This document shows positions 206 to 13,699 of a stretch of DNA of 64,000 nt, one piece after another (positions within the stretch are counted from its first letter, which is position 1; every line of letters begins with the position of its first letter). The position numbers and the translations under genes are program-made. The DNA comes from Candidatus Aminicenantes bacterium (GTDB lineage: Bacteria; Acidobacteriota; Aminicenantia; Aminicenantales; Saccharicenantaceae): the NCBI GenBank assembly GCA_963843505.1, contig CAWJKR010000008.1:465922-529921 (forward strand), in the 5' to 3' direction. The notes beneath the pieces are model-generated. The model made no database searches. It was not told where the DNA came from and saw nothing but the letters and a program-made list of their open reading frames with translations.

Positions 206-227
206 CCCTATGTTATAAATCGCCCTC

Positions 228-1679
228 ATGAAGAGCGTCCTGTTCGCCACGAAGAGCCTCGAGCAGCTGACGCAGGAGGCCTCGTCGGAGTCCTCCGGTC
301 TCAAGCGCGTCCTCGGCCCCTGGCACCTCATCTTCCTCGGCGTCGGGGCCATCGTCGGGGCCGGCATCTTCGTCATGACCGGCCACGTCGCCGCCCAGTA
401 CGCCGGGCCCGCCGTCACGCTGTCCATCGTCCTCGCCGGGGTCACGTGCGCCTTCGCCGGGCTCTGCTACGCCGAGTTCGCCTCGCTCATCCCCATCGCC
501 GGCAGCGCCTACACCTACGCCTATTCGACCCTCGGCGAGATCTTCGCCTGGATCATCGGCTGGGACCTCATCCTGGAATACTCGGTCGGCGCGACGACCG
601 TGGCCATCGGCTGGTCCGGCTACGTCGTCAGCTTCCTCAAGGGCGTCGGGATCAATTTCCCGGCCGCCCTGGCCGACGCGCCCTACGCCTTCGATCCCAA
701 GTCCGGCGCGTGGACGCGGACGGGCTCGTTCATCAACCTCCCGGCCCTCCTGATCATCGCCCTCATCACCATCGTCCTCGTCCGGGGCATCCGCGAGTCG
801 GCCTCGGTCAACTCCGTCATCGTCTTCCTGAAGATCAGCATCATCCTCGTCTTTGTCGGCGCGGGCATCTTCTTCATCAAACCGGAGCTGTGGCATCCCT
901 TCATCCCCGCCAACCAGGGGCAATCCGGCTTCTTCGGCTGGAGCGGGATCCTCCGCGGGGCCGGGGTGATGTTCTTCGCCTACCTCGGCTTCGACGCCGT
1001 CTCGACCGCCGCCCAGGAGGCCAAGAACCCCAAGCGGGACATGCCCATCGGCATCCTCGGATCGCTCTTCGCCTGCACGGCCATCTACATCGTCTTCTCC
1101 CTCGTCCTCACGGGCGTCGTCCCCTACAACGAGCTCAACGTCACCGCCCCCGTGGCCGTGGCCATCGACGCCATGCGGCTCTTCTGGCTCTCGCCCCTCA
1201 TCAAGATCGCCGCCATCGTCGGGCTCATGTCGGTCATGATGGTCCAGCTCATGGGCCAGCCGCGGATCTTCTACACCATGGCCAAGGACGGGCTCCTGCC
1301 GCCGGCCGCGGCCAAGATCCACCCCAAGTACGGCACGCCCCACGTCACCACGATGATCACCGGCATTCTCGTCGGCGTCGCCGCCGCGCTCCTGCCCATG
1401 GGCATCGTCGGCGAGCTCGTCAGCATCGGGACGCTCTTCGCCTTCGCCATCGTCTGCGGCGGCGTCCTCGTCCTCCGCTACACCCGGCCCGACATCCCGC
1501 GGCCGTTCCGGACGCCCCTCGTCCCGTTCGTCCCGCTTCTCGGCATCTTTTCCTGCGTCTACCTGATGACCTTCCTGTCCAAGGACACCTGGATCCGCCT
1601 CATCGTCTGGATGGCGATCGGGCTGGTCATCTACTTCACCTACGGCATCCGCAAGAGCAAGCTCAGGAGAAGGCCATGA
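228..1679 (+). CDS. APC-superfamily amino acid permease (cationic amino acid transporter-like).
   Basis: Intact 483-aa ORF with about 12 TM segments. N-terminal [11 protein letters not shown] and LCYAEF...GSAYTY motifs are characteristic of APC/CAT-family permeases. Confidence 0.85.
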
Positions 1680-1745
1680 ACGTCCCCGCCGCTCCCCCCG
1701 CCGCCGCCGCCGTCGAGGCCGGGGCCCACGCACTTCAAGCGCGAG

Positions 1746-3173
1746 ATGTCCCTCTTCGACGCCATGATGATCGTCATGGGCGCCATGATCGGCTCGGGCA
1801 TCTTCATCGTCAGCGCCGACATCGCCCGCACGGTCGGCTCGCCCGGCCTCCTGCTCCTCGTCTGGCTCATCACCGGCATCGTCACGATCATCGGCGCCTT
1901 GAGCTACGGCGAGCTGGCCGGGATGATGCCCCACGCCGGCGGCCTCTACGTCTACCTGCGCGAGGCCTACGGCCCGCTCATCGGCTTCCTCTACGGTTGG
2001 ACGACCTTTCTCGTCATCCAGACCGGGACCATCGCCGCGGTGGGCGTCGCCTTCGCCAAGTTCACGGGCCTGCTCGTCCCCTGGTTCAGCGAGAAGCACG
2101 TCCTGGCGAACGCCCTGGGCCTGAAGGTCTCGGCCGCCCAGCTCCTGGCCATCGTCAGCATCATCGTCCTGACCTGGCTCAACATGCGCGGCCTGCGCAC
2201 CGGCAAGACCATCCAGGGGATCTTCACGGTGACCAAGACGGTCGCGCTCGGCGGCCTCATCCTGCTCGGCTTCGTCGTCGGGGCCAACGCCGCGGCCATC
2301 AAGGCCAATCTGGCCGGCCTCTGGAAGGCCTCCTGGACCCATATGGCGGCCGGCCAGATCGTCTCGGTCGAGCCGCTGACGGGCCTCATGCTCCTGGCGG
2401 CCATCGGCGCGGCCATGGTCGGGTCGCTCTTCGCCTCGGACGAATGGTACACCGTGACCTACATCGCCGGCGAGGTCAAGAACCCCCGCAAGAACATCCC
2501 CCTGAGCCTCGTCCTCGGGGCGGGGATCGTCATCCTGCTCTACTTCCTGGCCAACGTCGCCTACGTCGTCACCCTGCCGGTCCTCGGCAGCCCGGACGCG
2601 GCCGACGTCATGGGCCGGGGCATCCAGTTCGCCCAGTCCGACCGCGTCGGCACCGCGGCCGCCGAGATGATCTTCGGCGGCCCGGCGGCCCTCATCATGG
2701 CCGTGCTGATCATGATCTCCACGTTCGGCTGCAACAACGGCCTCATCCTCTCGGGCGCCCGCGTCTACTACGCCATGGCCAGGGACGGCCTGTTCTTCAA
2801 GTCCACGGGCACCCTGAACCGGAAGTCGGTCCCGGGCACGGCCCTCGTCGTCCAATGCGTCTGGGCCTGCCTGCTCTGCCTCTCCGGCACCTACAGCGAC
2901 CTTCTGGACTACGTCGTCTTCGCCGTGCTGATCTTCTTCGTCCTGATCGTCTCCGGGATCTTCATCCTCAGGAAGAAGCACCCCGACTGGGAGAGGCCGT
3001 ACAAGGCCTGGGGCTATCCCGTCGTGCCCGCCCTCTATGTCCTGGTCGCGGCGGCCATCGCCGTCGACCTGCTCGTCTTCAAGACGAAGTACACATTCCC
3101 CGGCCTGCTCATCGTCCTGATGGGCATCCCGGTCTATCTCATCCGCAAGCGTTTCGCCCGGACGCGGGCCTAG
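1746..3173 (+). CDS. APC-superfamily amino acid permease (LAT/SteT-like exchanger family).
   Basis: Intact 475-aa ORF. MIVMGAMIGSGIFIVSADIA...GGLYVYLREAYGPLIGFLYGW is typical of the L-type amino acid transporter branch. Second permease in tandem. Confidence 0.85.
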   Translation: MSLFDAMMIVMGAMIGSGIFIVSADIARTVGSPGLLLLVWLITGIVTIIGALSYGELAGMMPHAGGLYVYLREAYGPLIGFLYGWTTFLVIQTGTIAAVGVAFAKFTGLLVPWFSEKHVLANALGLKVSAAQLLAIVSIIVLTWLNMRGLRTGKTIQGIFTVTKTVALGGLILLGFVVGANAAAIKANLAGLWKASWTHMAAGQIVSVEPLTGLMLLAAIGAAMVGSLFASDEWYTVTYIAGEVKNPRKNIPLSLVLGAGIVILLYFLANVAYVVTLPVLGSPDAADVMGRGIQFAQSDRVGTAAAEMIFGGPAALIMAVLIMISTFGCNNGLILSGARVYYAMARDGLFFKSTGTLNRKSVPGTALVVQCVWACLLCLSGTYSDLLDYVVFAVLIFFVLIVSGIFILRKKHPDWERPYKAWGYPVVPALYVLVAAAIAVDLLVFKTKYTFPGLLIVLMGIPVYLIRKRFARTRA

Positions 3174-3175
3174 GC

Positions 3176-3367
3176 CTATTTCTTCCGCTCGGCGGCGAGA
3201 ACGCCGCCGATCATGTATTCCCGGGGCGTGAACTCCTGGACCCAGACGCGGATCGATTCGAGCGGGGCCCCGATCGAATCGTGCACGGCCGCGGTGACCG
3301 CGGTGAGCAGGGCCTTCTTCTGTTCGTCCGTCCGGCCTTCGAGCATGTGGATCTCGACGAGTGGCAT
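3176..3367 (-). CDS. 4-oxalocrotonate tautomerase family enzyme (63 aa).
   Basis: MPLVEIHMLEGRTDEQKKALLTAVTAAVHDSIGAPLESIRVWVQEFTPREYMIGG: Pro-1 after Met, and a length and motif typical of the 4-OT/tautomerase superfamily. Start chosen at the internal Met of the listed 84-aa ORF. Confidence 0.75.
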   Translation of the reverse strand: MPLVEIHMLEGRTDEQKKALLTAVTAAVHDSIGAPLESIRVWVQEFTPREYMIGGVLAAERKK

Positions 3368-3432
3368 GGCCGACTCCTTCTGTTTGACTTTGCGGAGGCC
3401 TTCTGATAATACCATAGAAAAGACGGACACCC

Positions 3433-3780
3433 ATGATCATCAAGACCCGCGAGATCGATAACATCGTCGTCTTCGACGTCGAGGGCGAGATCCGCCGCAC
3501 CGACACGGCCCAGGAGACCCTCCACAGCCTGGTCGAAGCCCAGCTCGACCGGGGCCGGAGGAACGTCCTGCTCAACCTCGGCGGCGTGGAGTTCATCGAC
3601 AGCTTCGGCGTGGGCCAGATCCTGGCCAGCTACATCTCGACCCAGAACCTCGGCGGCCGGCTCAAGCTCTGCCAGATCTCCCACAAGCTCCTCCTCATCT
3701 TCCAGATCACCATGCTGACCAAGGTCCTCGAGATCCACGAGGATTGCGACCGGGCCTTGGAGAGCTTCAGGAAGGCCTGA
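3433..3780 (+). CDS. STAS-domain anti-sigma-factor antagonist (SpoIIAA/RsbV-like).
   Basis: 115 aa. ...NVLLNLGGVEFIDSFGVGQILASY... is the STAS fold signature (conserved phosphorylatable Ser region DSFGVG). Confidence 0.8.
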   Translation: MIIKTREIDNIVVFDVEGEIRRTDTAQETLHSLVEAQLDRGRRNVLLNLGGVEFIDSFGVGQILASYISTQNLGGRLKLCQISHKLLLIFQITMLTKVLEIHEDCDRALESFRKA

Positions 3781-3808
3781 CCTTCCGGGGGCCTGAGGGG
3801 GGAGGGGA

Positions 3809-6365
3809 GTGCCCGACGGGCGGCTCGAAAGGATCCTGAGAGGCTTCGGGGACGTCCGCGGCCGCGAGGCCCGCGCCGCCCTGTCCCTGTCCGCGTACTT
3901 CTTCCTGATCACTTTCACCTTCTACATCATCAAGCCGGTCAAGGAGAGCTTCCTGATCGGCACCGCCCCGACCTGGTGGCCTTTCGCCGAGCTGGCCACG
4001 GCCCTGCTCATCGGCTTCGTCGTCGCCCTCAACGCCCGGCTCCTCGACCGCCTGCCCCGGCGGACCTACCTGACGGCCTCGCTCCTGTTCTTCATCGCCA
4101 GCCTCCTCGCCTTCTGGTTCGTCTTCGACGTCCACCAGAAGAGCCTGGTCATGACGCCCGTGGCCGACGCGTCCGGCATCTTCTTCTTCCTCTGGGCCCA
4201 GGTCATCATCCTGAACTCCTGGAACGTCGTCGTCATCGTCTTCTGCTTCTGGGCCGACATCTTCATCGCCCTGTCCGTGACCCAGTTCTGGATCTCCGTC
4301 AACGACATCTTCGACCCGCACCAGGCCAAGCGGCTGGTCGGGCTCTTCGTCGCCGGGGGCCTTTTCGGCGGCATCGCCGGCTCCGGCGCCGCCGCGCTGG
4401 TCACCTTCGCGCGCGTCATCCACGCCGAGGACCTTCTTCTCGTCTGCCCCGTCCTGCTCGTCCTGGCCCTCGTCGTCATCAACGTCGTCTACGCCGAGCA
4501 GCGCAAGATCGACGCCGCGGTCGGCGACGAGCGCATCGCGCGGGGCTCCAAAGTCGGGTATCTCGAGAGCTTCCGGACCGTCCGGCGGGACCGCTACCTC
4601 CGCCTGCTGGCGGCGATGCTGGCCTCGGCCATGGTCGCCGGCTCCCTCATCAACTACCAGTTCAAGACGGTCGTCAAGAGCATCGTCACCAACGATCAGC
4701 AGAGGACGGCGGCCATCGCCGGGTTCTTCCTGATCATCCTGGTCGTTTCGACGGTCTTCCACCTCCTCACGACCGGCCGCGTCCTCAGGACCTACGGCAT
4801 CCGCTGGGCCATCCTCGTCGCGCCGGCCCTGCTGCTGCTGGGATCGGCGGCGGTCTTCCTGATCCCCGCCGGGGCGATGCTCGCCTGGGCCTGTTTCGTC
4901 CGCGGCGGCGACAAGACCTTCGACAACACGCTCAGCCAGTCCGTCCGCGAGCTGCTGTATATCCCCGTGTCCGCGGACGTCAAATACCGGGCCAAGCTCT
5001 TCATCGACATGTTCGTCAGCAAGTTCGCCACGGGCCTCGGCGCCGCGCTCTTCCTTCTCCTCTACTCCACCCGGCAGTTCGCCTACCGCACCGACCAGCC
5101 GCTGGCCGTCGTCCGCGAGATCGGCCTCGCCGTCCTCGTCTTCCTGGCCCTCTGGCTTGTCCTGACCCGGCTCGTCTACCGGGAGTACCCGGCGGTCCTG
5201 AAGAAGGACCTCGGCCGGCTCTGGGTCCCCGGCCAGGACGTCGTCGACAAGCACATCGACGAGAAGCTCGTCCGCGAGGTCTTCGAGGCCATCCAGAGCC
5301 GCGAGCGCAGCACGACGCTCTACTACATGAACCTCTTCAACCTCGTCCGGTCGAACAACCTGACCCCCGAGCTCAAGGAGCTCCTGGGCATCAAGCGGGA
5401 CGAGATCAAGGCCCGGGCCATGGACGCCCTGTTCGACGTCGGCGGCGAGGCCTTCTTCCCCGGCCTCGACGAGGCCATCACCGACACGGAGTTCCAGAAG
5501 GAGATCGACCTCATCTTCCTGCTGCCCTCCTACCAGAAGATCATGGACGACCGCCTCGGCGGGATCGTCGGCCTCGCCCGTCCGAGGTCGACCGGATCGA
5601 GGCGGCCAACAGCATCTGCCGGATGGCGCCGAGCCCCTCGACGATCGAGGCCCTGAGCCCGCCTCCTCCAGGACCCCTCGCCCGACGTCGTCCTCTACGC
5701 CCTGAACAGCGCCTCCGTCCACCGGCGCCGCGAGCACCTGCCGCTCATCGTGAGGCAGCTGGCCAATCCCCGGACGGTCGCCGAGGCCCAGACGGCGCTG
5801 GCCGCCTACGGGCCCGATGTCCTCGGGCTTCATCGCCCCGGTCCTCCGCTCGGCCGACGAGCCCCTGGAGGTCCGCCGGGCCATCCCGGACGTTCTGGCC
5901 CGGATCGGCACCCAGAAGGCCGCCGACATCCTCGTCGCCGAGCTGGCCCGCCGCCGCGACGACATGGAGCAGCCGCTCGTCGACGCCCTCTACAAGCTCC
6001 GCGCCGCCCGGCCCGAGGTCCGCTTCCGGAGAAGGACGTCCGGCCGGAGCTCCTCCATCCTGATCCGTCAGGGCCTGCGACCTCGTCACGGACCCGCCCG
6101 GCTCCCCGGACGCGGCCAAGGCGCAGCTGGACGATCCGCGATCCGGCGCGTCTTCGACCTCCTGACGCTCCTCTATCCGCGCGAGGAGATCGTCAACGAC
6201 TACCAGAACATCCTCCAGGGGACCGCCAAGTCCGTCGACTATTCCCTCGAGCACCTCGACAACCTCCTCGACCGGGAGGTCAAGGAGCTCCTTTTCCCGC
6301 TCATCGAGGACCTGCCGGCCGACGAACGGTGCCTGCGCCTGAAAAAGGCGCTGAGGTTGAAATGA
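3809..6365 (+). CDS. TLC/NTT-family nucleotide (ATP:ADP) transporter with a C-terminal HEAT/PBS-lyase-like repeat extension; CDS read across at least 3 apparent frameshifts.
   Basis: N-terminus YIIKPVKESFLIGTAP..., multi-TM body with FWISVNDIF, matching the TLC ATP/ADP translocase pattern. After about 5570 the translation continues sensibly in other frames (SEVDRIEAANSICRMAPSPSTIEAL; LLQDPSPDVVLYALNSASV...; DVLARIGTQKAADILVAELARRRDD...LKKALRLK*), which are HEAT-like repeats. GTG start at 3809 preceded by GAGGGGGGAGGGG. Confidence 0.55.
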
Positions 6366-6403
6366 CGGGCCGCGTCATTTAGAATGAAGAGGAAGGGCGA
6401 GCC

Positions 6404-8088
6404 ATGGCCAACCTGTACATCTACCCGAAGACCGGAGAGCCCTCGACCTTCCCCCTGGGCCCGCGCCGCGTGACGATCGGCCGGTCGGCCGCGAACGACA
6501 TCGTCCTCTCCGACCAGTTCAGCTCGGGCTGCCACGCCGTCGTCGTCCCGACCGAGCGGGGCTACGCCCTGGTCGACCAGGGCAGCAAGAACGGGACCTT
6601 CGTCAACGGCCGCCGCGTCAGCGGCGAGATCGATCTCGCCCGCGGCGACGAGATCCTCATCGGCTCGACCCGCTTCTACTTCGACAAGGACTTCCAGCCC
6701 TCCGTCGAGACCGTCGAGGGCACGACCTTCACCCACAGCTCGAACACGATCATCCAGGTCAAGGACCTCCTCAAGAAGCCGCGGCCGGCCAGCGCGCCTC
6801 GTGAAGACCCCGGGCGGCGGGCTCGACCTCGAGCGCTTCCAGCAGGACCAGAAGATCATCGCCGGTCGTGGGCGAGGTCAGCCAGGCCCTCATCTATCAC
6901 ATGCCCCTCGACAAGCTCCTCGACCACATCATGGACGTCCTCATCCAGCACCTGCCCATGGACCGGGGCGTCCTCATGCTCAAGAACGAGGAGACCCAGG
7001 CCCTCGAGCCCAAGGTCGTCCGGGTCCAGAACGGCGCCCTGCGGACCCAGAGCATCTTCGTCAGCCAGACGATCGTCAAGACGGCCCTGGAGCGCAACTC
7101 GGCCATCCTCATCTCCGACATCCAGGCCGACGAGGGCCTGCGGGCCCAGATGAGCGTCGTCCAGGCCCAGATCCACTCGGCCATGTGCGTGCCGCTCTGG
7201 AACAACCAGGACATCATCGGCCTGATCTACTGCGACCGGGCCTCGCTCATCGAGCAGTTCACGGAGGACGACCTGCGCCTCCTGACGCTTCTCGCCAACC
7301 TGGCCGCCGTGAAGATCGAGAACGCCCGCCTCATCGACGAGTCCATCAAGGCCCTCCAGTACGAGCGGGAGATCGCCCTGGCCGTCCAGATCCAGAAGAA
7401 CTTCCTGCCCCGGGACGAGCCGGACTTCGCGCCCTACGAGATCAGCGGCAGCGCCCGGGCCTGCCGCCGCGTCGGCGGCGACTATTACGATTACATCGCC
7501 ATCGACAAGGACCGCCTGGCCGTCGTCATCGCCGACGTCTCGGGCGTCGGCGTCAGCGCCTCCCTGCTCATGGCCTCGCTGCGCGGGGCCCTCCACGAGA
7601 AATTCCCCGGGACCGTCGATCTCGGCGAGCTGGCCGCCAAGCTCAACGATTTCGTCTACGCGAGCTCGGACAGCCACCTCTTCATCTCGTTCTTCCTGGC
7701 CATCCTCGACCGGGCGCAGGGACGAGGTCTCCTTCATCAACGCCGGCCACAACCCGCCGCTCCTCCTGGGGCGCAAGGGGCCGGCCCGTCTCCTCGAGAG
7801 CACCGGGCCCTGCCTGGGGATGTTCCCGGCCCAGGCCTTCGCCGAGCAGACCGTCGCCCTCGGCGCCGGCGACATCCTCTGCCTTTACACCGACGGGATC
7901 GTCGAGAGCCGGAAGGGCGAGCACGACGAGTACGGGGTCGAGCGCCTGGCGGAGAAGGCTCAGGGAGCTCGGCCGGCCTGCCGGCCGCGGAGGTCCGGGA
8001 CAAGATCTTCGAGGACGTCCTCGCCTTCAGCGGCTGCGCCGAAGCGGGCGACGACATGACGCTCGTCGTCGTCAAGCGGAACCCGTGA
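6404..8088 (+). CDS. FHA-GAF-PP2C (SpoIIE/RsbU-type) serine phosphatase; 4 or more apparent frameshifts.
   Basis: N-terminal FHA: RVTIGRSAANDIVLSDQFSSGCHAVV...ALVDQGSKNGTFVNGRRV...GDEILIGSTRFYF. Middle GAF: MDRGVLMLKNEET...CVPLWNNQDIIGLIYCD. C-terminal PPM/SpoIIE: GGDYYDYIAIDKDRLAVVIADVSGVGVSASLLMA...ILCLYTDGIVESR...MTLVVVKRNP*. Segments lie in frames 2, 0, 1, 2, 1. Confidence 0.75.
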
Positions 8089-8531
8089 AGAACGCGGACG
8101 TGAGGCGCACCGGGACCGGCGAGGACGCCGCGGAGCTCCGCGTTTCCGCCGACCTCAAGGCCATCGACCGCGTCCGCGGCTTCCTCAGGGAGGCCATCGC
8201 CGACCTGCCCTTCGATGAGCAGGACCGGCTCAAGATCGAGCTGGCCCTTCACGAGATCTGCGTCAACATCGCCCGCTATGCCTATCCCCGCGGACGCAAG
8301 GGCGAGATGACCGTGCGCATCTGGCGGGACGGCGGTTCGCTGTTCATCGAGGTCCGGGACAAGGGCATCCCCTTCAATCCCGTCCGGAAGAAGAACCCCG
8401 ACCTCATGGTCAAGCTCCGGCGCGGCGTCCCCGGCGGGCTGGGCGTCTACTTTTTCAAGACGCTGATGGACGGCCTGTCCTACCGGCGGACGGGCGGACA
8501 GAACATCCTGACCGTCCGCAAGTCCCTCTGA
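8085..8531 (+). CDS. RsbW/SpoIIAB-like anti-sigma-factor serine kinase (HATPase_c).
   Basis: GTG start overlaps the phosphatase stop (GTGA). ...LHEICVNIARYAYPRGRKGEMTVRIW...IEVRDKGIPFNP...GGLGVYFFKTLMDGLSY... is the GHKL ATPase fold of partner-switching kinases. Confidence 0.7.
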   Translation: MKNADVRRTGTGEDAAELRVSADLKAIDRVRGFLREAIADLPFDEQDRLKIELALHEICVNIARYAYPRGRKGEMTVRIWRDGGSLFIEVRDKGIPFNPVRKKNPDLMVKLRRGVPGGLGVYFFKTLMDGLSYRRTGGQNILTVRKSL

Positions 8532-9437
8532 TCAGTAGAAGACCTTGTCTTCCCCGTTGGCCCTGACCAGCCGGTCGATCTCCGCCAGGATGAGGTCCCG
8601 CCGGATGAGGACGGCGCGGATCTCCTCGTCGGTGAGATAGCTCCCGACGACCGACTTGATCGCGGCGAAATCGAGGGACTTGACCTTGTCGACGACCGCC
8701 CGGGGCAGCTCGCTCATGAGCATCGGCCCCGCCGGGCTCTTGGCCGAATAGAGGAGTCCCTTGGTGAACTTGCCCGACGTCCGGAACGACCGGGAATGGT
8801 CGATGAGGATCATCCGCCAGTCGCGCGTGATCAGGATCTGGTTCGAGTGGCGGTCCTCGTTGGCGATGAGGTTGTCGAAGAGCCGCTGCAGATAGGTGGC
8901 CCGGTTCCAGCCGAGGACCTTGATCGGGGGCATCTTGATCCGCTTCTCGTCCCTGTCCCTGAGCGACATGGCAGTCGTCGATCCAGTATTGGCAGGAGCC
9001 GCGGTCGCCGCGAAAACGGCGCTCGACCGTGGGGGGGACCATGCCGAGCCCGAGGTACTTGTCGAGACGGTAGGCGGCGATCTCGTAGTGCCAGCCTTCC
9101 CAGTAGCCGCCCATGCGGCCCTCGGGGTTCTTCCAGAGGCCCCGATGTGTGACGCCGCCGAGCTTGAGCGTCAGGACCCAGGGCGAGGTCACGGCCTCGG
9201 CCCCGCTCAGCTGCTTGCTTCCGACTCGATCACGGCCGCCTTCTCGAGGAATTCCTCCCACTTGCTCGCGCTGGGCCAGCTCGTCGGGAAGGAACTGGAG
9301 CGGGGCGGGGGAGACCGCCGCGGGCGGGCCGGGCGAGGCCTTGTCCGCGGGGGCCCCGGCGTCGACGCAGGCCAGCAGGATCGCGCCGAGAGGCAGGAGG
9401 ACGGCCAGGCCGGTCGATAGGAAGCGCTTGTTCCCTC
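8532..9437 (-). CDS. Lipoprotein with a type II PI4-kinase-like (PI3/PI4K-superfamily) catalytic core, paralog A; one apparent frameshift.
   Basis: Lipobox LAVLLPLGAILLAC. EIAAYRLDKYLGLGMVPPTVER resembles the PI4KII segment ASLVDQKLELNIVPRTKVV. LIANEDRHSNQILITRDWRMILIDHSRSF matches the catalytic loop DRxxxN and the DFG-like IDxxxxF of PI3/PI4 kinases. C-terminal helix ...LTDEEIRAVLIRRDLILAEIDRLV shared with paralogs B and C. Start codon not resolved (no ATG after the upstream stop). Confidence 0.5.
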
Positions 9438-10275
9438 TCAATACAGCACCGCCTCTTCGCCCTGTTCCTCGACCATCCGGGCGATCTCCCGGAGGAGGAT
9501 GTCCCGGCGGGCGAGGACGGCCTTGATCTCCCTGTCGGTGAGCGTCTTCCCGACGGCCTCGCGGATGTTCTCGAAGGTCAGGGTCTTGATCCTGTCGACG
9601 AACCAGCGGGGCAGGCGGCGAAAGAGGAACGGCTCGCCCAGGGCCGACGTCTTGAGGCCGTCGCGGCCGAACATGAGACGCTCCGAGTACTCGCCGCCCG
9701 CACCGGAAGGACCGCGAGTGGTCGAAGACGATCGTCCGCCAGTCCTCGGTATAAAGGATGTTCTGCTGGGTCCGGTCCTCGTTGGCGATGAGGCTGTCCC
9801 AGGCCCGGGTCAGCCATTTCATCTTGTCGGTCCGGTCCTTGGCCTCGTCGGGGATGGGGATGCCCTGCTCGATGACCTTGAGCAGGCTGTACTTGCTCTC
9901 GGCCCAGAGGACCAGGGCGCCCGGCTTGCCCTGGAACTCGCGCTCGACGGCCGGGGGGACCATGTTCGTCCCGAGGAGCTTGTCCATGCCGTAGGCGGCG
10001 ATCTCGTATTGCCAGCCCTCGAGGTGGCCGCCTTGCAGGCCGCGGGGGTTCTTCCAGGCGGCCGCGAGCTCGACCCCGTCCTTGCGGAGATAGAGCTTGA
10101 GCGGTTTCGTCACGCCTTCGCCGATCTCCTCGAAGCGGACGATCTCGGCCGTGCGGAGGAACTCCTCCCGGGCCGGCCTCAGGGCGATCTCATCGGGCCG
10201 GAACTGGGCCCACGAGCCGGGCGGACCGGCCGCCGCGGCCAGGGCCAGGACGAAGAGGACGGCGACGCGTTTCAT
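9438..10275 (-). CDS. Secreted PI4KII-like kinase-fold protein, paralog B; one apparent frameshift.
   Basis: Signal peptide MKRVAVLFVLALAAAAGPPGSWAQ. WQYEIAAYGMDKLLGTNMVPPAVERE; LIANEDRTQQNILYTEDWRTIVFDHSRSF; C-terminus ...LTDREIKAVLARRDILLREIARMV. ATG at 10275 (complement of cat 10273-10275). Confidence 0.5.
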
Positions 10276-10334
10276 GACATCCTCCCCCGACGATGAACGG
10301 ACCGTTCCGATGATAGTCTCACGTCGGGACGATT

Positions 10335-11807
10335 TCAAGGCCGCCCGGCGGCCTCCTGAGCGACGGCCGCGTCGCACGCGGCCTTGCGCTTCCCGTAGGC
10401 CGGGATGATCTTGAGGCAGATGACGAGCAGGACCGCGATCACGGCGACGTTGAGGAGCGCGTAGCGCTCGATCCGCAGCCCCAGGAGCTGGGTCCCGGCC
10501 AGGACGGCCAGGGCCGAGAGGGTATCGCCGCCGCGGACGAAGAAGGTGTCGATGGCCGCCTTGGCCTTGTACTTCTCCTCCCTCTTGGTGACCAGGAACA
10601 GGGCCGCCTTGGTCGTGTTCTGCAGGGAGTAGTCCGTGCCGTTCTCCAGGGACTTGACCCAGCGGACGAGGACGAGCGTGGCCCCGAAGGAGATCAGGGC
10701 GTAGCCGCCGAGGGCCAGGATCGGCAGGAAGAGGAGGGCGCCTCCGACCCCGATCCACTTGAAGATCCTGGAGACGAACAAGAGCTGGATGATGAGCGCG
10801 ATGAGGTTCGTCAGGAACTGGTAGTTCATGAAGGCGTTGTGGATGGCCTTGCTCTCGGTCTGGCCCGGCAGGACCGGCGGCGCGGCGGGGGCGCTTCCCC
10901 GGCAGGCTCGCCGCCGCTTGGGCCGGGACCGCGGCCGCCTTCGCCTCGGTCGTCTCGATCGATCGATTGACCGTCACGGCGGTGATGATGAACTCCCCGG
11001 TCGCGTTGACGAAATTGTAGAGGCCGATCATGACCGCGATGAGCAGGAGATAGCGGCTCTTGAAGACCAGCCTGAAGCCGCCGCCGGCCTTGAGGGGCTG
11101 TTCCTGGACGAGGGGCTTTTCGGCCGGCCCCGGCCGGGCCCTCGCCCCGCTCCGCGCGGGACCTCCGGACGTCGCGGCCGTGGATCGTCCGGGCCAGGAC
11201 GATGCAGAGGAAGAGCACGATCCCGGCGATGAGCATGAGCTTGAACTCCCAGCTCCCGCCCAGGATGTCCCTCAGCCTGCGCATGAACGGCAGGGTCGCG
11301 ATGAGGCCGCCCAGGGTCGCGCCCAGCGCGACGAGCGGGAAGGTCCGCTTGCCGGCCTCGTCGGAATAGAGGTCGTTGGCGAAGCCCCAGAACTGGGCGA
11401 TGACGAAGTAGTTGAAGATGCCGACCCAGATGTAGAACAGGATCCCCATCGGCTTGACGGCCATGCCGCCGGCGTGCAGGACGTAGAAGATGACGAGGTT
11501 GGAGATGAAGAACGGTGGTCGTCCAGGTGATGAGGACGTGGCGGGGGACGCGGGAGGCCAGGCGGCTGAAGGCCTTGATGACGAAGACGAACAGGACGGC
11601 CTGCGCCCCGCCGAGGACGCTCTTGACGACGGGGGAGTCCTTGTCGACGAGCAGGAGCGATTCGCGCAGGGGTTTCAGGATGTAGTAGGCGAGGAGCAGG
11701 AGAAAGACGTTCAGGGCCAGGAGGAGGGCCTTGGGCGCTTCGCCGTGGCGGATGTCGGCGAACAGGCGGAGGAACCTGTAGCCGGGATTGTAGCGCGGTT
11801 CGGCCAT
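10335..11807 (-). CDS. TLC/NTT-family ATP:ADP translocase no. 2; 2 or more apparent frameshifts.
   Basis: N-terminus MAEPRYNPGYRFLRLF...LAYYILKPLRESLLLV (TLC N-terminal signature, compare YxILRDxKDxLV). Middle YIWVGIFNYFVIAQFWGFANDLYSDEAGKRTFPLVALGATLGG (compare the TLC consensus FWSFANDIY). C-terminal MNYQFLTNLIALIIQLLFVSRIFKWIG. ATG at 11807 with AAAGGGGA SD. Confidence 0.65.
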
Positions 11808-11827
11808 CGCTTCCCCTTTCCGCACGA

Positions 11828-13699
11828 TCAAAAGAGGACGTTCGCTTCGCCGAGGCTCTTGATCATCATCCGGAGACGCCTGACGATGAAGGTGCGCCGC
11901 GTATTGAGCGCCCCGATCTCCTCCGGTCCGAGATAGCGGCCGAGGTAGGCGGAGACGGTCCGGTCCTCCCAGCCGAGGAGCCGCCGGTAGAGGAGCCGGG
12001 AGCATCGCCGGATCTCGCAGCCGGGGGCGTCCCCCGTCTTCGGGGCGAAGGCCTCGGAGAAGTCGACGTGGTAGATCCGGCCGTCCTCGCTGACCAGCGT
12101 GTCCTTGTCGTTCCGGCAGTCGTCATAGACGAGGGCCTGGAACACGACGAGGTCGGCCAAGGCGCGTTCGAAGGCCTCGGGGTCAGGCGGGACGGCCTTC
12201 TTGTCCCGGAAATCGGCCAGGGACCGGGCGTCGGAGATGAAGGCCTGCAGGGCCCCCGGAACATCCTCGACGGTCCGCTCGACGATCGGCGGGACGTAGG
12301 AGAGGCCGAGGTACTTGTTCAGCGCGTAGGCGGCCAGATCGTACCGGAAGCTGTCGGCGAGCGGATCGGGCCGCCGCCGGTCGATGTACCTGAACAGGGC
12401 CTCGAGAACGGTCCCCTGCGATTCCAGAGCGTGAGCCGCCAGGCGTCGGTCCGGCCGCCGGGCCCGGGGCCGCGCCCGGTGACGGCCGCCGTCCGCAGGA
12501 ACGTCTCCATCTCCCGGGTCATCAGGGGCTTCGGCGGCGGGCGGCGGATGCCGCTGCGCGCGGCCACCTCCTCGGTCTCGCCCCAGACCCGGAATTCGCC
12601 GTGGTCGTAGATGAGGGCCGAGGGGACGCCGCCGTAGCTCCCGGAGGAAATGCCGGTGTCCATGATCCAGATCTTGTCCTGGAAGCGGGAGACGCTCCTG
12701 CGGTCGACGGTCGGGCTCGCGCCGCTCGGAAAAGCGGAAGTAATTGTGCCCGACGACGATGGCCCGGGCCCCGAGGTTGGCCAGGGTCCGGTCGATCTCG
12801 GCCTGGGCCGCGGCCTCGTTCTTGGTGGCCAGGCCCCGGAACCAGAGCGGGCTGTCCGGGTTGTAGACGAGCCGGGGGTGGAACGGCTTGCCGTATTGCC
12901 GGGGATTGCGCATGCGCCCCTGGAAGAACTCGAGCTCGGAGCGCATGACCTGGTTGATCTCGCGGATCGGCCACTTGGAGAAGGCCTCGCTGACGCCGCC
13001 GTGGGCATAGATGACGTCGTTGATCTTGATGACCGTGTTCTTCTTGATGAGCCAATCCCCGCAGGCCTCGTTGAAGCCCAGGACATAGGCGCGCATGGCG
13101 TCCGGGTCCTTGGCGGCCATGATCTTCCGCCAGAATTCGGCCAGGCGATCGTCGGCGTGGACGTCGAGGCCTTCGATCTCGGCCCGCTTCCTGTCCTCGT
13201 CGGAGAGCGTCTTGAGGTACTCGGCCTGCCTCTCGCGGCGGAAATCCTCGGGCAGGAACGAGACGAACTGCTCCACGGTGACGTAGTCCGGATAGTCGAG
13301 GGCGATGCCGGTGATGTTCATCTCCTCGTGGTTGCCGAGGAGCATGTGGACCATGCCGCCGGCGGCGGCCGCTTCCTTCTCGAGGCGCATGAGGAGCTCG
13401 AGGATCTCCTTGGCCCGGGGGCCCCGGTCCACGACGTCGCCGAGCTGGACGAGATGGGTCTTGCCGCCCGTCCAGTGGAGGTCGTCGTCGATGAGGCCGA
13501 CCTGCGGGTGGGCGAGGATGAAGACGAAGCGGTCGTAGTCGCCGTGGAGGTCGGCGACGGCCACGACCCGGTCGACGCCCGTCCATTCGAAGGGGATGTC
13601 GGCGGCGGGGGTGAGCCGGGGCAAGACGGCGAGGGCCAGAAGGAGGAGGAAGAACGGCCGGCGCCTCCGGCGAACCTCTCTGCGGCTGGTCATCGGCAT
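11828..13699 (-). CDS. Secreted fusion of a calcineurin-like metallophosphoesterase and a PI4KII-like kinase fold, paralog C; 1-2 frameshifts in the middle.
   Basis: N-terminus MPMTSRREVRRRRRPFFLLLLALAVLP (signal, possibly Tat-like RR). MPP motifs: VAVADLHGDYDRF, GDVVDRGP, GNHE, YAHGG. C-terminal half: FRYDLAAYALNKYLGLSYVPPIVERT; FQALVYDDCRNDKDTLVSEDGRIYHVDFSEAF (DxxxN loop plus DFS, a DFG-like motif); tail ...LGPEEIGALNTRRTFIVRRLRMMIKSLG paralogous to A and B. Confidence 0.6.
   Translation of the reverse strand: MPMTSRREVRRRRRPFFLLLLALAVLPRLTPAADIPFEWTGVDRVVAVADLHGDYDRFVFILAHPQVGLIDDDLHWTGGKTHLVQLGDVVDRGPRAKEILELLMRLEKEAAAAGGMVHMLLGNHEEMNITGIALDYPDYVTVEQFVSFLPEDFRRERQAEYLKTLSDEDRKRAEIEGLDVHADDRLAEFWRKIMAAKDPDAMRAYVLGFNEACGDWLIKKNTVIKINDVIYAHGGVSEAFSKWPIREINQVMRSELEFFQGRMRNPRQYGKPFHPRLVYNPDSPLWFRGLATKNEAAAQAEIDRTLANLGARAIVVGHNYFRFSERREPDRRPQERLPLPGQDLDHGHRHFLRELRRRPLGPHLRPRRIPGLGRDRGGGRAQRHPPPAAEAPDDPGDGDVPADGGRHRARPRARRPDRRLAAHALESQGTVLEALFRYIDRRRPDPLADSFRYDLAAYALNKYLGLSYVPPIVERTVEDVPGALQAFISDARSLADFRDKKAVPPDPEAFERALADLVVFQALVYDDCRNDKDTLVSEDGRIYHVDFSEAFAPKTGDAPGCEIRRCSRLLYRRLLGWEDRTVSAYLGRYLGPEEIGALNTRRTFIVRRLRMMIKSLGEANVLF

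Follow-up and report, generated by a model that had tools for sequence, protein, structure and literature searches.

A putative STAS/RsbW/PP2C partner switch encoded with an NTT-HEAT transporter in Candidatus Aminicenantes

Partner-switching modules such as RsbV-RsbW-RsbU and SpoIIAA-SpoIIAB-SpoIIE combine a single-domain STAS antagonist carrying a DSxG serine, a GHKL kinase with N, G1, and G2 boxes, and a PP2C phosphatase of the SpoIIE family, with the gene order antagonist-kinase-sigma. Switches that do not act on a sigma factor have also been described, i.e., SypA/SypE of V. fischeri, BtrU/V/W of Bordetella, RbaV/W of R. capsulatus, and the Hep module of Anabaena; they have in common that the switch genes lie among those of the process under their control and that the STAS protein is probably the effector (PMC8256260, PMC3999984, bioRxiv 10.64898/2026.04.08.717354). 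Here, we report on a gene cluster in a 64,000-nt stretch from a Candidatus Aminicenantes bacterium (GenBank assembly GCA_963843505.1, contig CAWJKR010000008.1, positions 465,922 to 529,921, forward strand; hereafter the window) that contains all three kinds of protein, but in the order antagonist-transporter-phosphatase-kinase, with no sigma gene in the cluster and with FHA and GAF input domains on the phosphatase. In contrast to the non-sigma switches above, what the switch would act on is a membrane transporter, secondary-active and with a HEAT-repeat tail (NTT-HEAT). We lean toward the view that a partner-switching phospho-relay is attached to this transporter in place of a sigma factor and may directly regulate it. 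In the literature searched, we found no description of an NTT or MFS transporter coupled to a partner switch, nor a link between Aminicenantes, NTT, and anti-sigma genes.

A STAS fold acting on a transporter has precedents. In the MlaB-MlaF system, a free STAS protein regulates an ABC transporter in trans (PMC7367683), and SulP/SLC26 transporters carry a STAS domain in cis (PMC8256260). In the window, by contrast, the STAS is a free, 115-aa gene product accompanied by a kinase and a phosphatase, and the transporter is of the TLC/MFS type; a covalent fusion of the SulP/SLC26 style is not found, and the likeness to that family is one of analogy only. MlaB binds an ATPase subunit and is not known to be cycled by a dedicated kinase and phosphatase; the SulP STAS is covalently fused. 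Concerning the transporter itself, Major et al. (2017) described NTT-HEAT and NTT-HEAT-cNBD proteins and suggested that the cNBD works together with the HEAT domain in a regulatory role; NTT-HEAT proteins occur widely among free-living bacteria, and no member of the clade has been characterized (PMC5381601). The Aminicenantes proteins share the TLC and HEAT architecture, but at about 800-860 aa they are shorter, and in place of a cNBD partner they come with the STAS/PP2C/RsbW set. With the chlamydial and rickettsial Npt1/Tlc1 and the plastid NTT1 (9j3n, 9j3j) they share homology over the whole core of 12 transmembrane (TM) helices, family motifs included, yet the kinship is at the superfamily level only (47 versus 387 bits) and the organism here is apparently free-living.

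The listing of open reading frames (ORFs) and Pfam searches on pieces of the window place four genes on the plus strand: a STAS-only protein of the anti-sigma-antagonist type (3433-3780, 115 aa, intact), the NTT-HEAT transporter gene (3809-6365, ~849 aa in relatives), the FHA-GAF-PP2C phosphatase gene of SpoIIE/RsbU type (6404-8088, 559 aa in relatives), and an RsbW/SpoIIAB-type serine kinase of the HATPase_c_2 family (8085-8531, 148 aa, GTG start, intact). The transporter and phosphatase genes are frame-broken in the window copy and are discussed as such below. For all four units, Pfam agrees with the gene order and domains of the original prediction, which had been made from the DNA letters alone. 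The intergenic distances are 28 nt between STAS and NTT-HEAT (3781-3808) and 38 nt between NTT-HEAT and PP2C (6366-6403), i.e., one fewer each than the predicted 29 and 39, whereas the predicted 4-nt overlap is real, the stop codon of the PP2C gene and the GTG start of the kinase gene sharing GTGA at 8085-8088. Co-transcription is indicated by these short spacings and by the overlapping stop and start codons. The TGA stop of the RsbW gene (8529-8531) directly abuts the stop codon of the minus-strand gene dn1 at 8532, and the zero spacer that had been claimed at 8531/8532 can be read directly.

The switch is apparently complete and catalytically competent, as judged from conserved motifs. The window STAS matches Pfam at E 7.6e-14 and the NCBIfam model TIGR00377 (anti-sigma-antagonist) at 61.9 bits (cut-off 53.45), and it is 98% identical to the protein on L001, a related contig whose intact orthologs were used to judge the identity of the parts. 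Within its D56-S57-F-G59 loop, D56-S57-x-G59 is invariant in 74/74 orthologs, with Ser57 at the position of the phosphorylatable serine. On the phosphatase gene, the FHA match (E 1.7e-18) starts at 6404 and Pfam places GAF and SpoIIE/PP2C in the 6868-8088 frame of the window; the intact L001 ortholog gives a SpoIIE match at E 8.9e-45, and the metal-site motifs GGDYYD, DVSG.G, NAGH..P, TDG, and DD.T are kept in 66 orthologs. The window kinase matches HATPase_c_2 at E 3.1e-26, and its N, G1, and G2 boxes (HE..N, D.G, GG.G) are kept in 50 orthologs. The NCBIfam RsbW equivalog models are matched only under their cut-offs, and the kinase is therefore better described as a family member than as an RsbW ortholog. 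In two independent metagenome-assembled genomes (MAGs), the FHA-GAF-PP2C and kinase parts are fused in a single ORF of 727-729 aa (L025, 12565-14754; L027, 12570-14753).

The original prediction had called the transporter an NTT while allowing that it might turn out to be a generic MFS protein. The window sequence matches Pfam TLC at E 1.9e-18 (67 bits against a cut-off of 21) as well as MFS_1, and the 849-aa L001 transporter matches TLC at 62 bits (same cut-off) together with HEAT_2. A profile of the family matches the NTT structures 9j3n/9j3o at E 1.3e-12 and the plastid NTT1 9j3j over residues 16-452, with common motifs. The generic MFS identity was rejected on the above-threshold TLC score and the profile match to solved NTT structures over the TM core, and TLC/NTT-superfamily membership is thereby confirmed. 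The NCBIfam model of the ATP/ADP exchanger, TIGR00769, reaches only 47.2 bits against a cut-off of 387.2; because this score is so far under the cut-off, the transporter is, by family score, a divergent member of the TLC superfamily and not an ATP/ADP exchanger proper. In relatives the protein has a TLC core of 12 helices at aa 1-~465 and, at aa ~560-849, a tail of HEAT repeats, i.e., both parts lie in one polypeptide, which is also the case in the window once 9 indels are corrected. An AlphaFold2 model, made from a 13-sequence alignment and used here only for helix count and HEAT tail, has 12 long helices followed by a helical-repeat solenoid at ~560-849 (predicted local distance difference test, pLDDT, about 90). 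The N-terminus and the segment after TM12 are rich in K/R.

Hundreds of close homologs of the ~850-aa transporter are present in metagenomes, and the named ones come from Aminicenantes or Acidobacteriota MAGs. Three loci (94% and 68% identity) carry STAS, TLC/HEAT, FHA-GAF-SpoIIE, and HATPase_c_2 in identical order with all four genes intact, and their gene tables list no sigma gene within 10 kb. A scan with one genome per species then gave 80 loci with transporter identities from 100% to 28%, at which ORFs were called and searched with hidden Markov models (HMMs) built iteratively from the L001 proteins (phmmer/hmmbuild/hmmsearch). STAS was found within 100 nt 5' of the first NTT-HEAT gene in 69/71 loci with enough upstream sequence, the modal gap being 28-35 nt; the two exceptions are artefacts, one a frameshifted transporter and the other a first paralog missed by detection. 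The PP2C gene lies within 250 nt 3' of NTT-HEAT in 69/75 loci, and at no locus is RsbW farther than about 10 kb from the transporter.

Three layouts are found. Layout A, that of the window's clade, has a tautomerase gene (minus strand), STAS-NTT-PP2C-RsbW (plus strand), and a block dn-dn-TLC2-metallophosphatase (minus strand), in which dn denotes putative Fam20-like kinase homologs and TLC2 a second transporter. Layout B, the Saccharicenans type, has RsbW (plus), dn-dn-TLC2-dn-metallophosphatase (minus), and STAS-NTT-NTT-PP2C (plus), i.e., the transporter is duplicated in tandem and RsbW remains tail to tail with the dn genes. In both layouts (L001-L043) the stop codons of RsbW and the convergent dn gene touch or overlap (0 to -9 nt), and this shared junction suggests that RsbW travelled with the dn block during rearrangement. 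Layout C, with 801-aa transporters at 28-29% identity, reads RsbW-Sat-CysC-STAS-NTT, where Sat is ATP sulfurylase and CysC is adenosine 5'-phosphosulfate (APS) kinase; a protein cluster of this type, P0141, is annotated as Aminicenantes. The genes for synthesis of 3'-phosphoadenosine 5'-phosphosulfate (PAPS) between kinase and STAS are a hint at an adenine-nucleotide or sulfonucleotide cargo. At the two most divergent layout C loci (L079, 7304-12400; L083, 294-3828), an S-adenosylmethionine synthetase gene lies upstream, and genes for two M16 peptidases and a Macro-domain protein follow downstream.

Searched exhaustively with HMMER, a library of 1.8 billion representative proteins yielded 7038 relatives. 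Besides ~35 Aminicenantes-like clusters, these are NTT-HEAT proteins of ~920 aa and NTT-HEAT-cNBD proteins of ~1050-1100 aa, which are the nearest remote relatives in that library. A second metagenome scan, seeded with a 7-sequence alignment of distant NTT-HEAT proteins, gave 80 loci, 79 of them informative. A cyclic-nucleotide (cNMP)-binding protein is adjacent or fused in 41/79 of these, and 32/79 have an exported metallophosphatase immediately 5' and/or dn-type genes, again with signal peptides; one locus belongs to both groups and 6/79 to neither. The HMM search found STAS or RsbW beside the transporter in 0/79 distant loci. Insensitivity of the HMMs as the cause was rejected, since the same models recover SpoIIAA, RsbV, RsbW, and SpoIIAB of B. 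subtilis with E-values of 1e-9 to 1e-18; these control sequences served as probes only, and their strong scores validate the models. Given 0/79 with models of this sensitivity, we take the switch to be an Aminicenantes-specific addition that, by gene context, fills the regulator niche held elsewhere by cNBD. The co-occurrence in other genomes on which the original prediction depended is thus borne out at nearly every Aminicenantes locus, over three layouts and down to 28% identity, but it stops at the distant ones. Two cNBD-type loci (L087, 12487-13722; L096, 12662-14083) have a SpoIIE-family PP2C gene ~1.3-1.4 kb 3' of the cNBD gene.

That the association is seen in Aminicenantes only, and that all the evidence is genomic context, would fit a clade-specific accident of gene order, with switch and transporter functionally unconnected. 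However, STAS and NTT stay adjacent through three layouts, when the transporter is duplicated in tandem, and when its identity falls to 28%, and the tight spacings with the overlapping stop and start codons point to co-transcription; we regard such an accident as very improbable.

As predicted, a sigma gene is missing. A six-frame search of the 64-kb window with sigma probes found no ORF of the sigma-70 family, and sigma probes together with Pfam gene lists found no sigma gene within +-10 kb in 82/83 related loci, i.e., the co-encoded sigma factor of partner-switching modules is absent from the window and from the searched range of all but one of these loci. The probe sequences were used only as probes and are validated by their match to an RpoD at the one remaining locus. 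There (L072, 7898-9415, minus strand), an rpoD-like gene, the sole sigma gene among the 83 loci, lies directly upstream of the STAS gene and divergent from it; this neighbor is probably a coincidence. The claim that the transporter is the only plausible output was overstated, since partner-switch targets are often unlinked, as the Chlamydia example illustrates.

Indeed, the output of the switch may be unlinked, i.e., a sigma factor or another protein that binds RsbW or STAS, and NTT-HEAT would then serve as its sensor or be cargo regulated along with it; FHA-GAF-PP2C might, for instance, be recruited by the HEAT tail, so that transporter occupancy (nucleotide availability) is reported to the switch. 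Chlamydia RsbW and sigma-66 give a precedent for unlinked targets (PMC4552016). In layouts A and B the PP2C with its input-type FHA and GAF domains is encoded directly 3' of NTT-HEAT, layouts B and C show that RsbW can be separated from the transporter, and L072 has its rpoD-like gene directly upstream, all of which would suit an output elsewhere. On the other side, STAS, the output-proximal part in the known non-sigma switches, never leaves the transporter, the sigma gene is missing from the surroundings of nearly all loci, and NTT-HEAT pairs elsewhere with cNBD, which fits a transporter that is the regulated object. Weighing these, we consider an unlinked output unlikely, though it is the alternative that we take most seriously.

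Direct regulation of the transporter, toward which we lean, draws on the conserved domains and motifs, the lack of a nearby sigma gene, the modeled HEAT solenoid, the precedents above, and two further facts: the three switch parts are locked to the transporter gene across the whole bacterial class Aminicenantes, and the regulator appears swapped, with cNBD partners in 41/79 distant loci and the STAS/RsbW set in Aminicenantes. Several points weigh against it. Layout C loci contain no PP2C, and both B and C have RsbW at a distance from the transporter. The genes are interrupted in the window copy, the transporter falls far short of the ATP/ADP-exchanger family score, and the TM core of the AlphaFold2 model is poor (pLDDT below 50). 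The search covered +-10 kb of each genome, and an unlinked sigma factor or other RsbW target could lie beyond that range. Contact of STAS or RsbW with the HEAT tail we infer from gene context, and the gene linkage would fit just as well if the transporter were the input of the switch, or merely co-expressed with it.

In the mechanism that we propose, the RsbW kinase would phosphorylate STAS at Ser57 and FHA-GAF-PP2C would remove the phosphate, and one phosphorylation state of STAS would dock on the cytoplasmic HEAT solenoid and thereby open or close the transporter. RsbW itself could dock on the solenoid instead, which seems less likely; STAS is favored because it alone never leaves the transporter gene. 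Through the RsbW kinase, the ATP/ADP ratio may serve as one input; Bacillus RsbW and SpoIIAB are known to report this ratio. Further inputs could be a small ligand at the GAF domain and a phospho-threonine partner at the FHA domain. The transporter is likely to exchange an adenine nucleotide across the inner membrane, because it belongs to the ATP/ADP-translocase superfamily and clusters with TLC2, putative Fam20-like kinases bearing signal peptides, and a metallophosphatase.

Please note that two of the four genes, those of the transporter and the phosphatase, are not continuous in the window as originally predicted; they had been stitched, and their frames are broken by 9 and 5 indels, respectively. 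The NTT-HEAT gene spans 2557 nt, which is not a multiple of 3, reading from 3809 halts at 5656, and the HEAT tail is scattered across three frames. One-base insertions lie near 5571, 5580, 5657, 5824, 6060, 6065, 6133, and 6140 and a deletion near 6028, i.e., all of the changes (8 insertions and 1 deletion) fall between 5569 and 6140. The FHA-GAF-PP2C gene (1685 nt, three frames) has one-base insertions near 6799, 6864, 7716, 7957, and 7973. The STAS and RsbW genes are uninterrupted. In DNA alignments every one of the NTT-HEAT and PP2C indel sites is clean in contigs L164 (97.8% identical) and L001 (92% identical). Over a longer range, comparison with these two intact contigs shows ~28 single-base changes, mostly +1 insertions, that disrupt almost all genes between 5569 and 15641, at ~1 per 350 nt, and the alignment has no indels at 206-5568. 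Switches in the phase of GC content at third codon positions are patchy along the whole 64-kb window, with similar patches at ~20-32 kb and 48-60 kb. The pattern is what an unevenly polished long-read assembly would look like. Because similar insertions run through the neighboring genes and phase breaks extend along the window, the frame-breaking insertions are most likely assembly errors.

The frameshifts could instead be real, and the cluster a pseudogene cluster decaying in the source organism, a question separate from that of the switch target. In favor of decay, the two genes hold 14 indels that are absent from relatives 97.8% and 92% identical, and the first 5.5 kb of the window is free of indels. 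Yet nearly all indels are +1, they recur at ~1/350 nt and hit each neighboring gene up to 15.6 kb, and the phase switches are patchy over the entire 64 kb. Moreover, the protein is 97% identical to its intact ortholog once indels are set aside, and the sole premature stops are those that the shifts produce. Many sister assemblies of the clade bear 'MFD...contig_N' names, which we take to mark long-read assemblies and count against decay as well. Decay is, in our judgment, improbable. One further difference from L164, a 12-nt in-frame change of four codons (...RIGT...) in the HEAT tail at 5902-5917, is, by alignment, a real difference between strains, in contrast to the insertions that shift the frame.

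Convergent with the switch genes, the minus strand at 8532-13693 (14712-19856 on L001) carries the block mentioned above. The gene dn1 (8532-9441, frame-broken) encodes a putative exported homolog of Fam20/PI4KII-like atypical kinases with a lipobox and the motifs DRHSNQ and IDHSRSF; dn2 (9438-10275, frame-broken near 9697) encodes a putative exported Fam20-like kinase homolog with a signal peptide. TLC2 (10335-11807, frame-broken; 487 aa in L001) is a second TLC/NTT-type transporter, without HEAT tail, and the last gene (11828-13693; 619 aa in L001) encodes an exported PPP/ApaH-like metallophosphatase with a signal peptide and a C-terminal Fam20-like, i.e., dn-like, kinase-like domain. Both dn proteins carry DRHxxN and IDHS motifs and match NCBIfam TIGR03843 under its cut-off; their family profile matches FAM20A (1.2e-6), FAM20B, and FAM20C in PDB. 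Phosphatase and dn genes also flank NTT-HEAT in the 32/79 distant non-Aminicenantes loci noted above (L104-L163) and are almost mutually exclusive with cNBD-partnered loci. The original prediction named a convergent kinase-like operon but overlooked that this block is part of the same conserved cluster and the wider companion of NTT-HEAT.

The wide linkage of NTT-HEAT with kinase and phosphatase genes suggests a more speculative reading, which we offer tentatively and rate as rather doubtful. The cluster might be a bacterial counterpart of eukaryotic secretory-pathway phosphorylation, in which TLC/NTT would export ATP (PAPS/APS in the Sat-CysC layout) in exchange for ADP and fuel periplasmic Fam20-like kinases, balanced by the exported PPP phosphatase, with export throttled in Aminicenantes by STAS/RsbW/PP2C according to energy charge. 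In the literature searched, we found no link of NTT-HEAT to exported Fam20-like kinases and no pairing of a periplasmic kinase with ATP export.

Two promoter-like elements on the plus strand may be mentioned. TTGACT-15 nt-GATAAT (3384-3410), read off the sequence itself, lies 5' of the STAS gene in the divergent spacer beside the tautomerase gene (3179-3367, minus strand). It is absent from the formal promoter scan, which demands a spacer of 16-18 nt; its TTGACT block aligns with contig L001. TTGAAA-17 nt-TAGAAT (6357-6385), across the end of the transporter gene, matches the consensus at 10/12 positions; this sigma-70-like site, a consensus match only, is a possible candidate for an internal promoter of PP2C-RsbW.

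If direct regulation is confirmed, this would be the first partner switch with a secondary transporter as its output, according to the literature searched. The cluster gives the NTT-HEAT clade two handles, i.e., a genetically tractable set of regulators, the STAS Ser57 phospho-switch, and conserved exported kinase-like and phosphatase partners, which suggest what the transporter feeds. With confirmation, a regulated nucleotide supply to the bacterial periplasm would become a testable idea, and nucleotide export, if true, would explain why free-living bacteria retain 'energy-parasite' NTT transporters.

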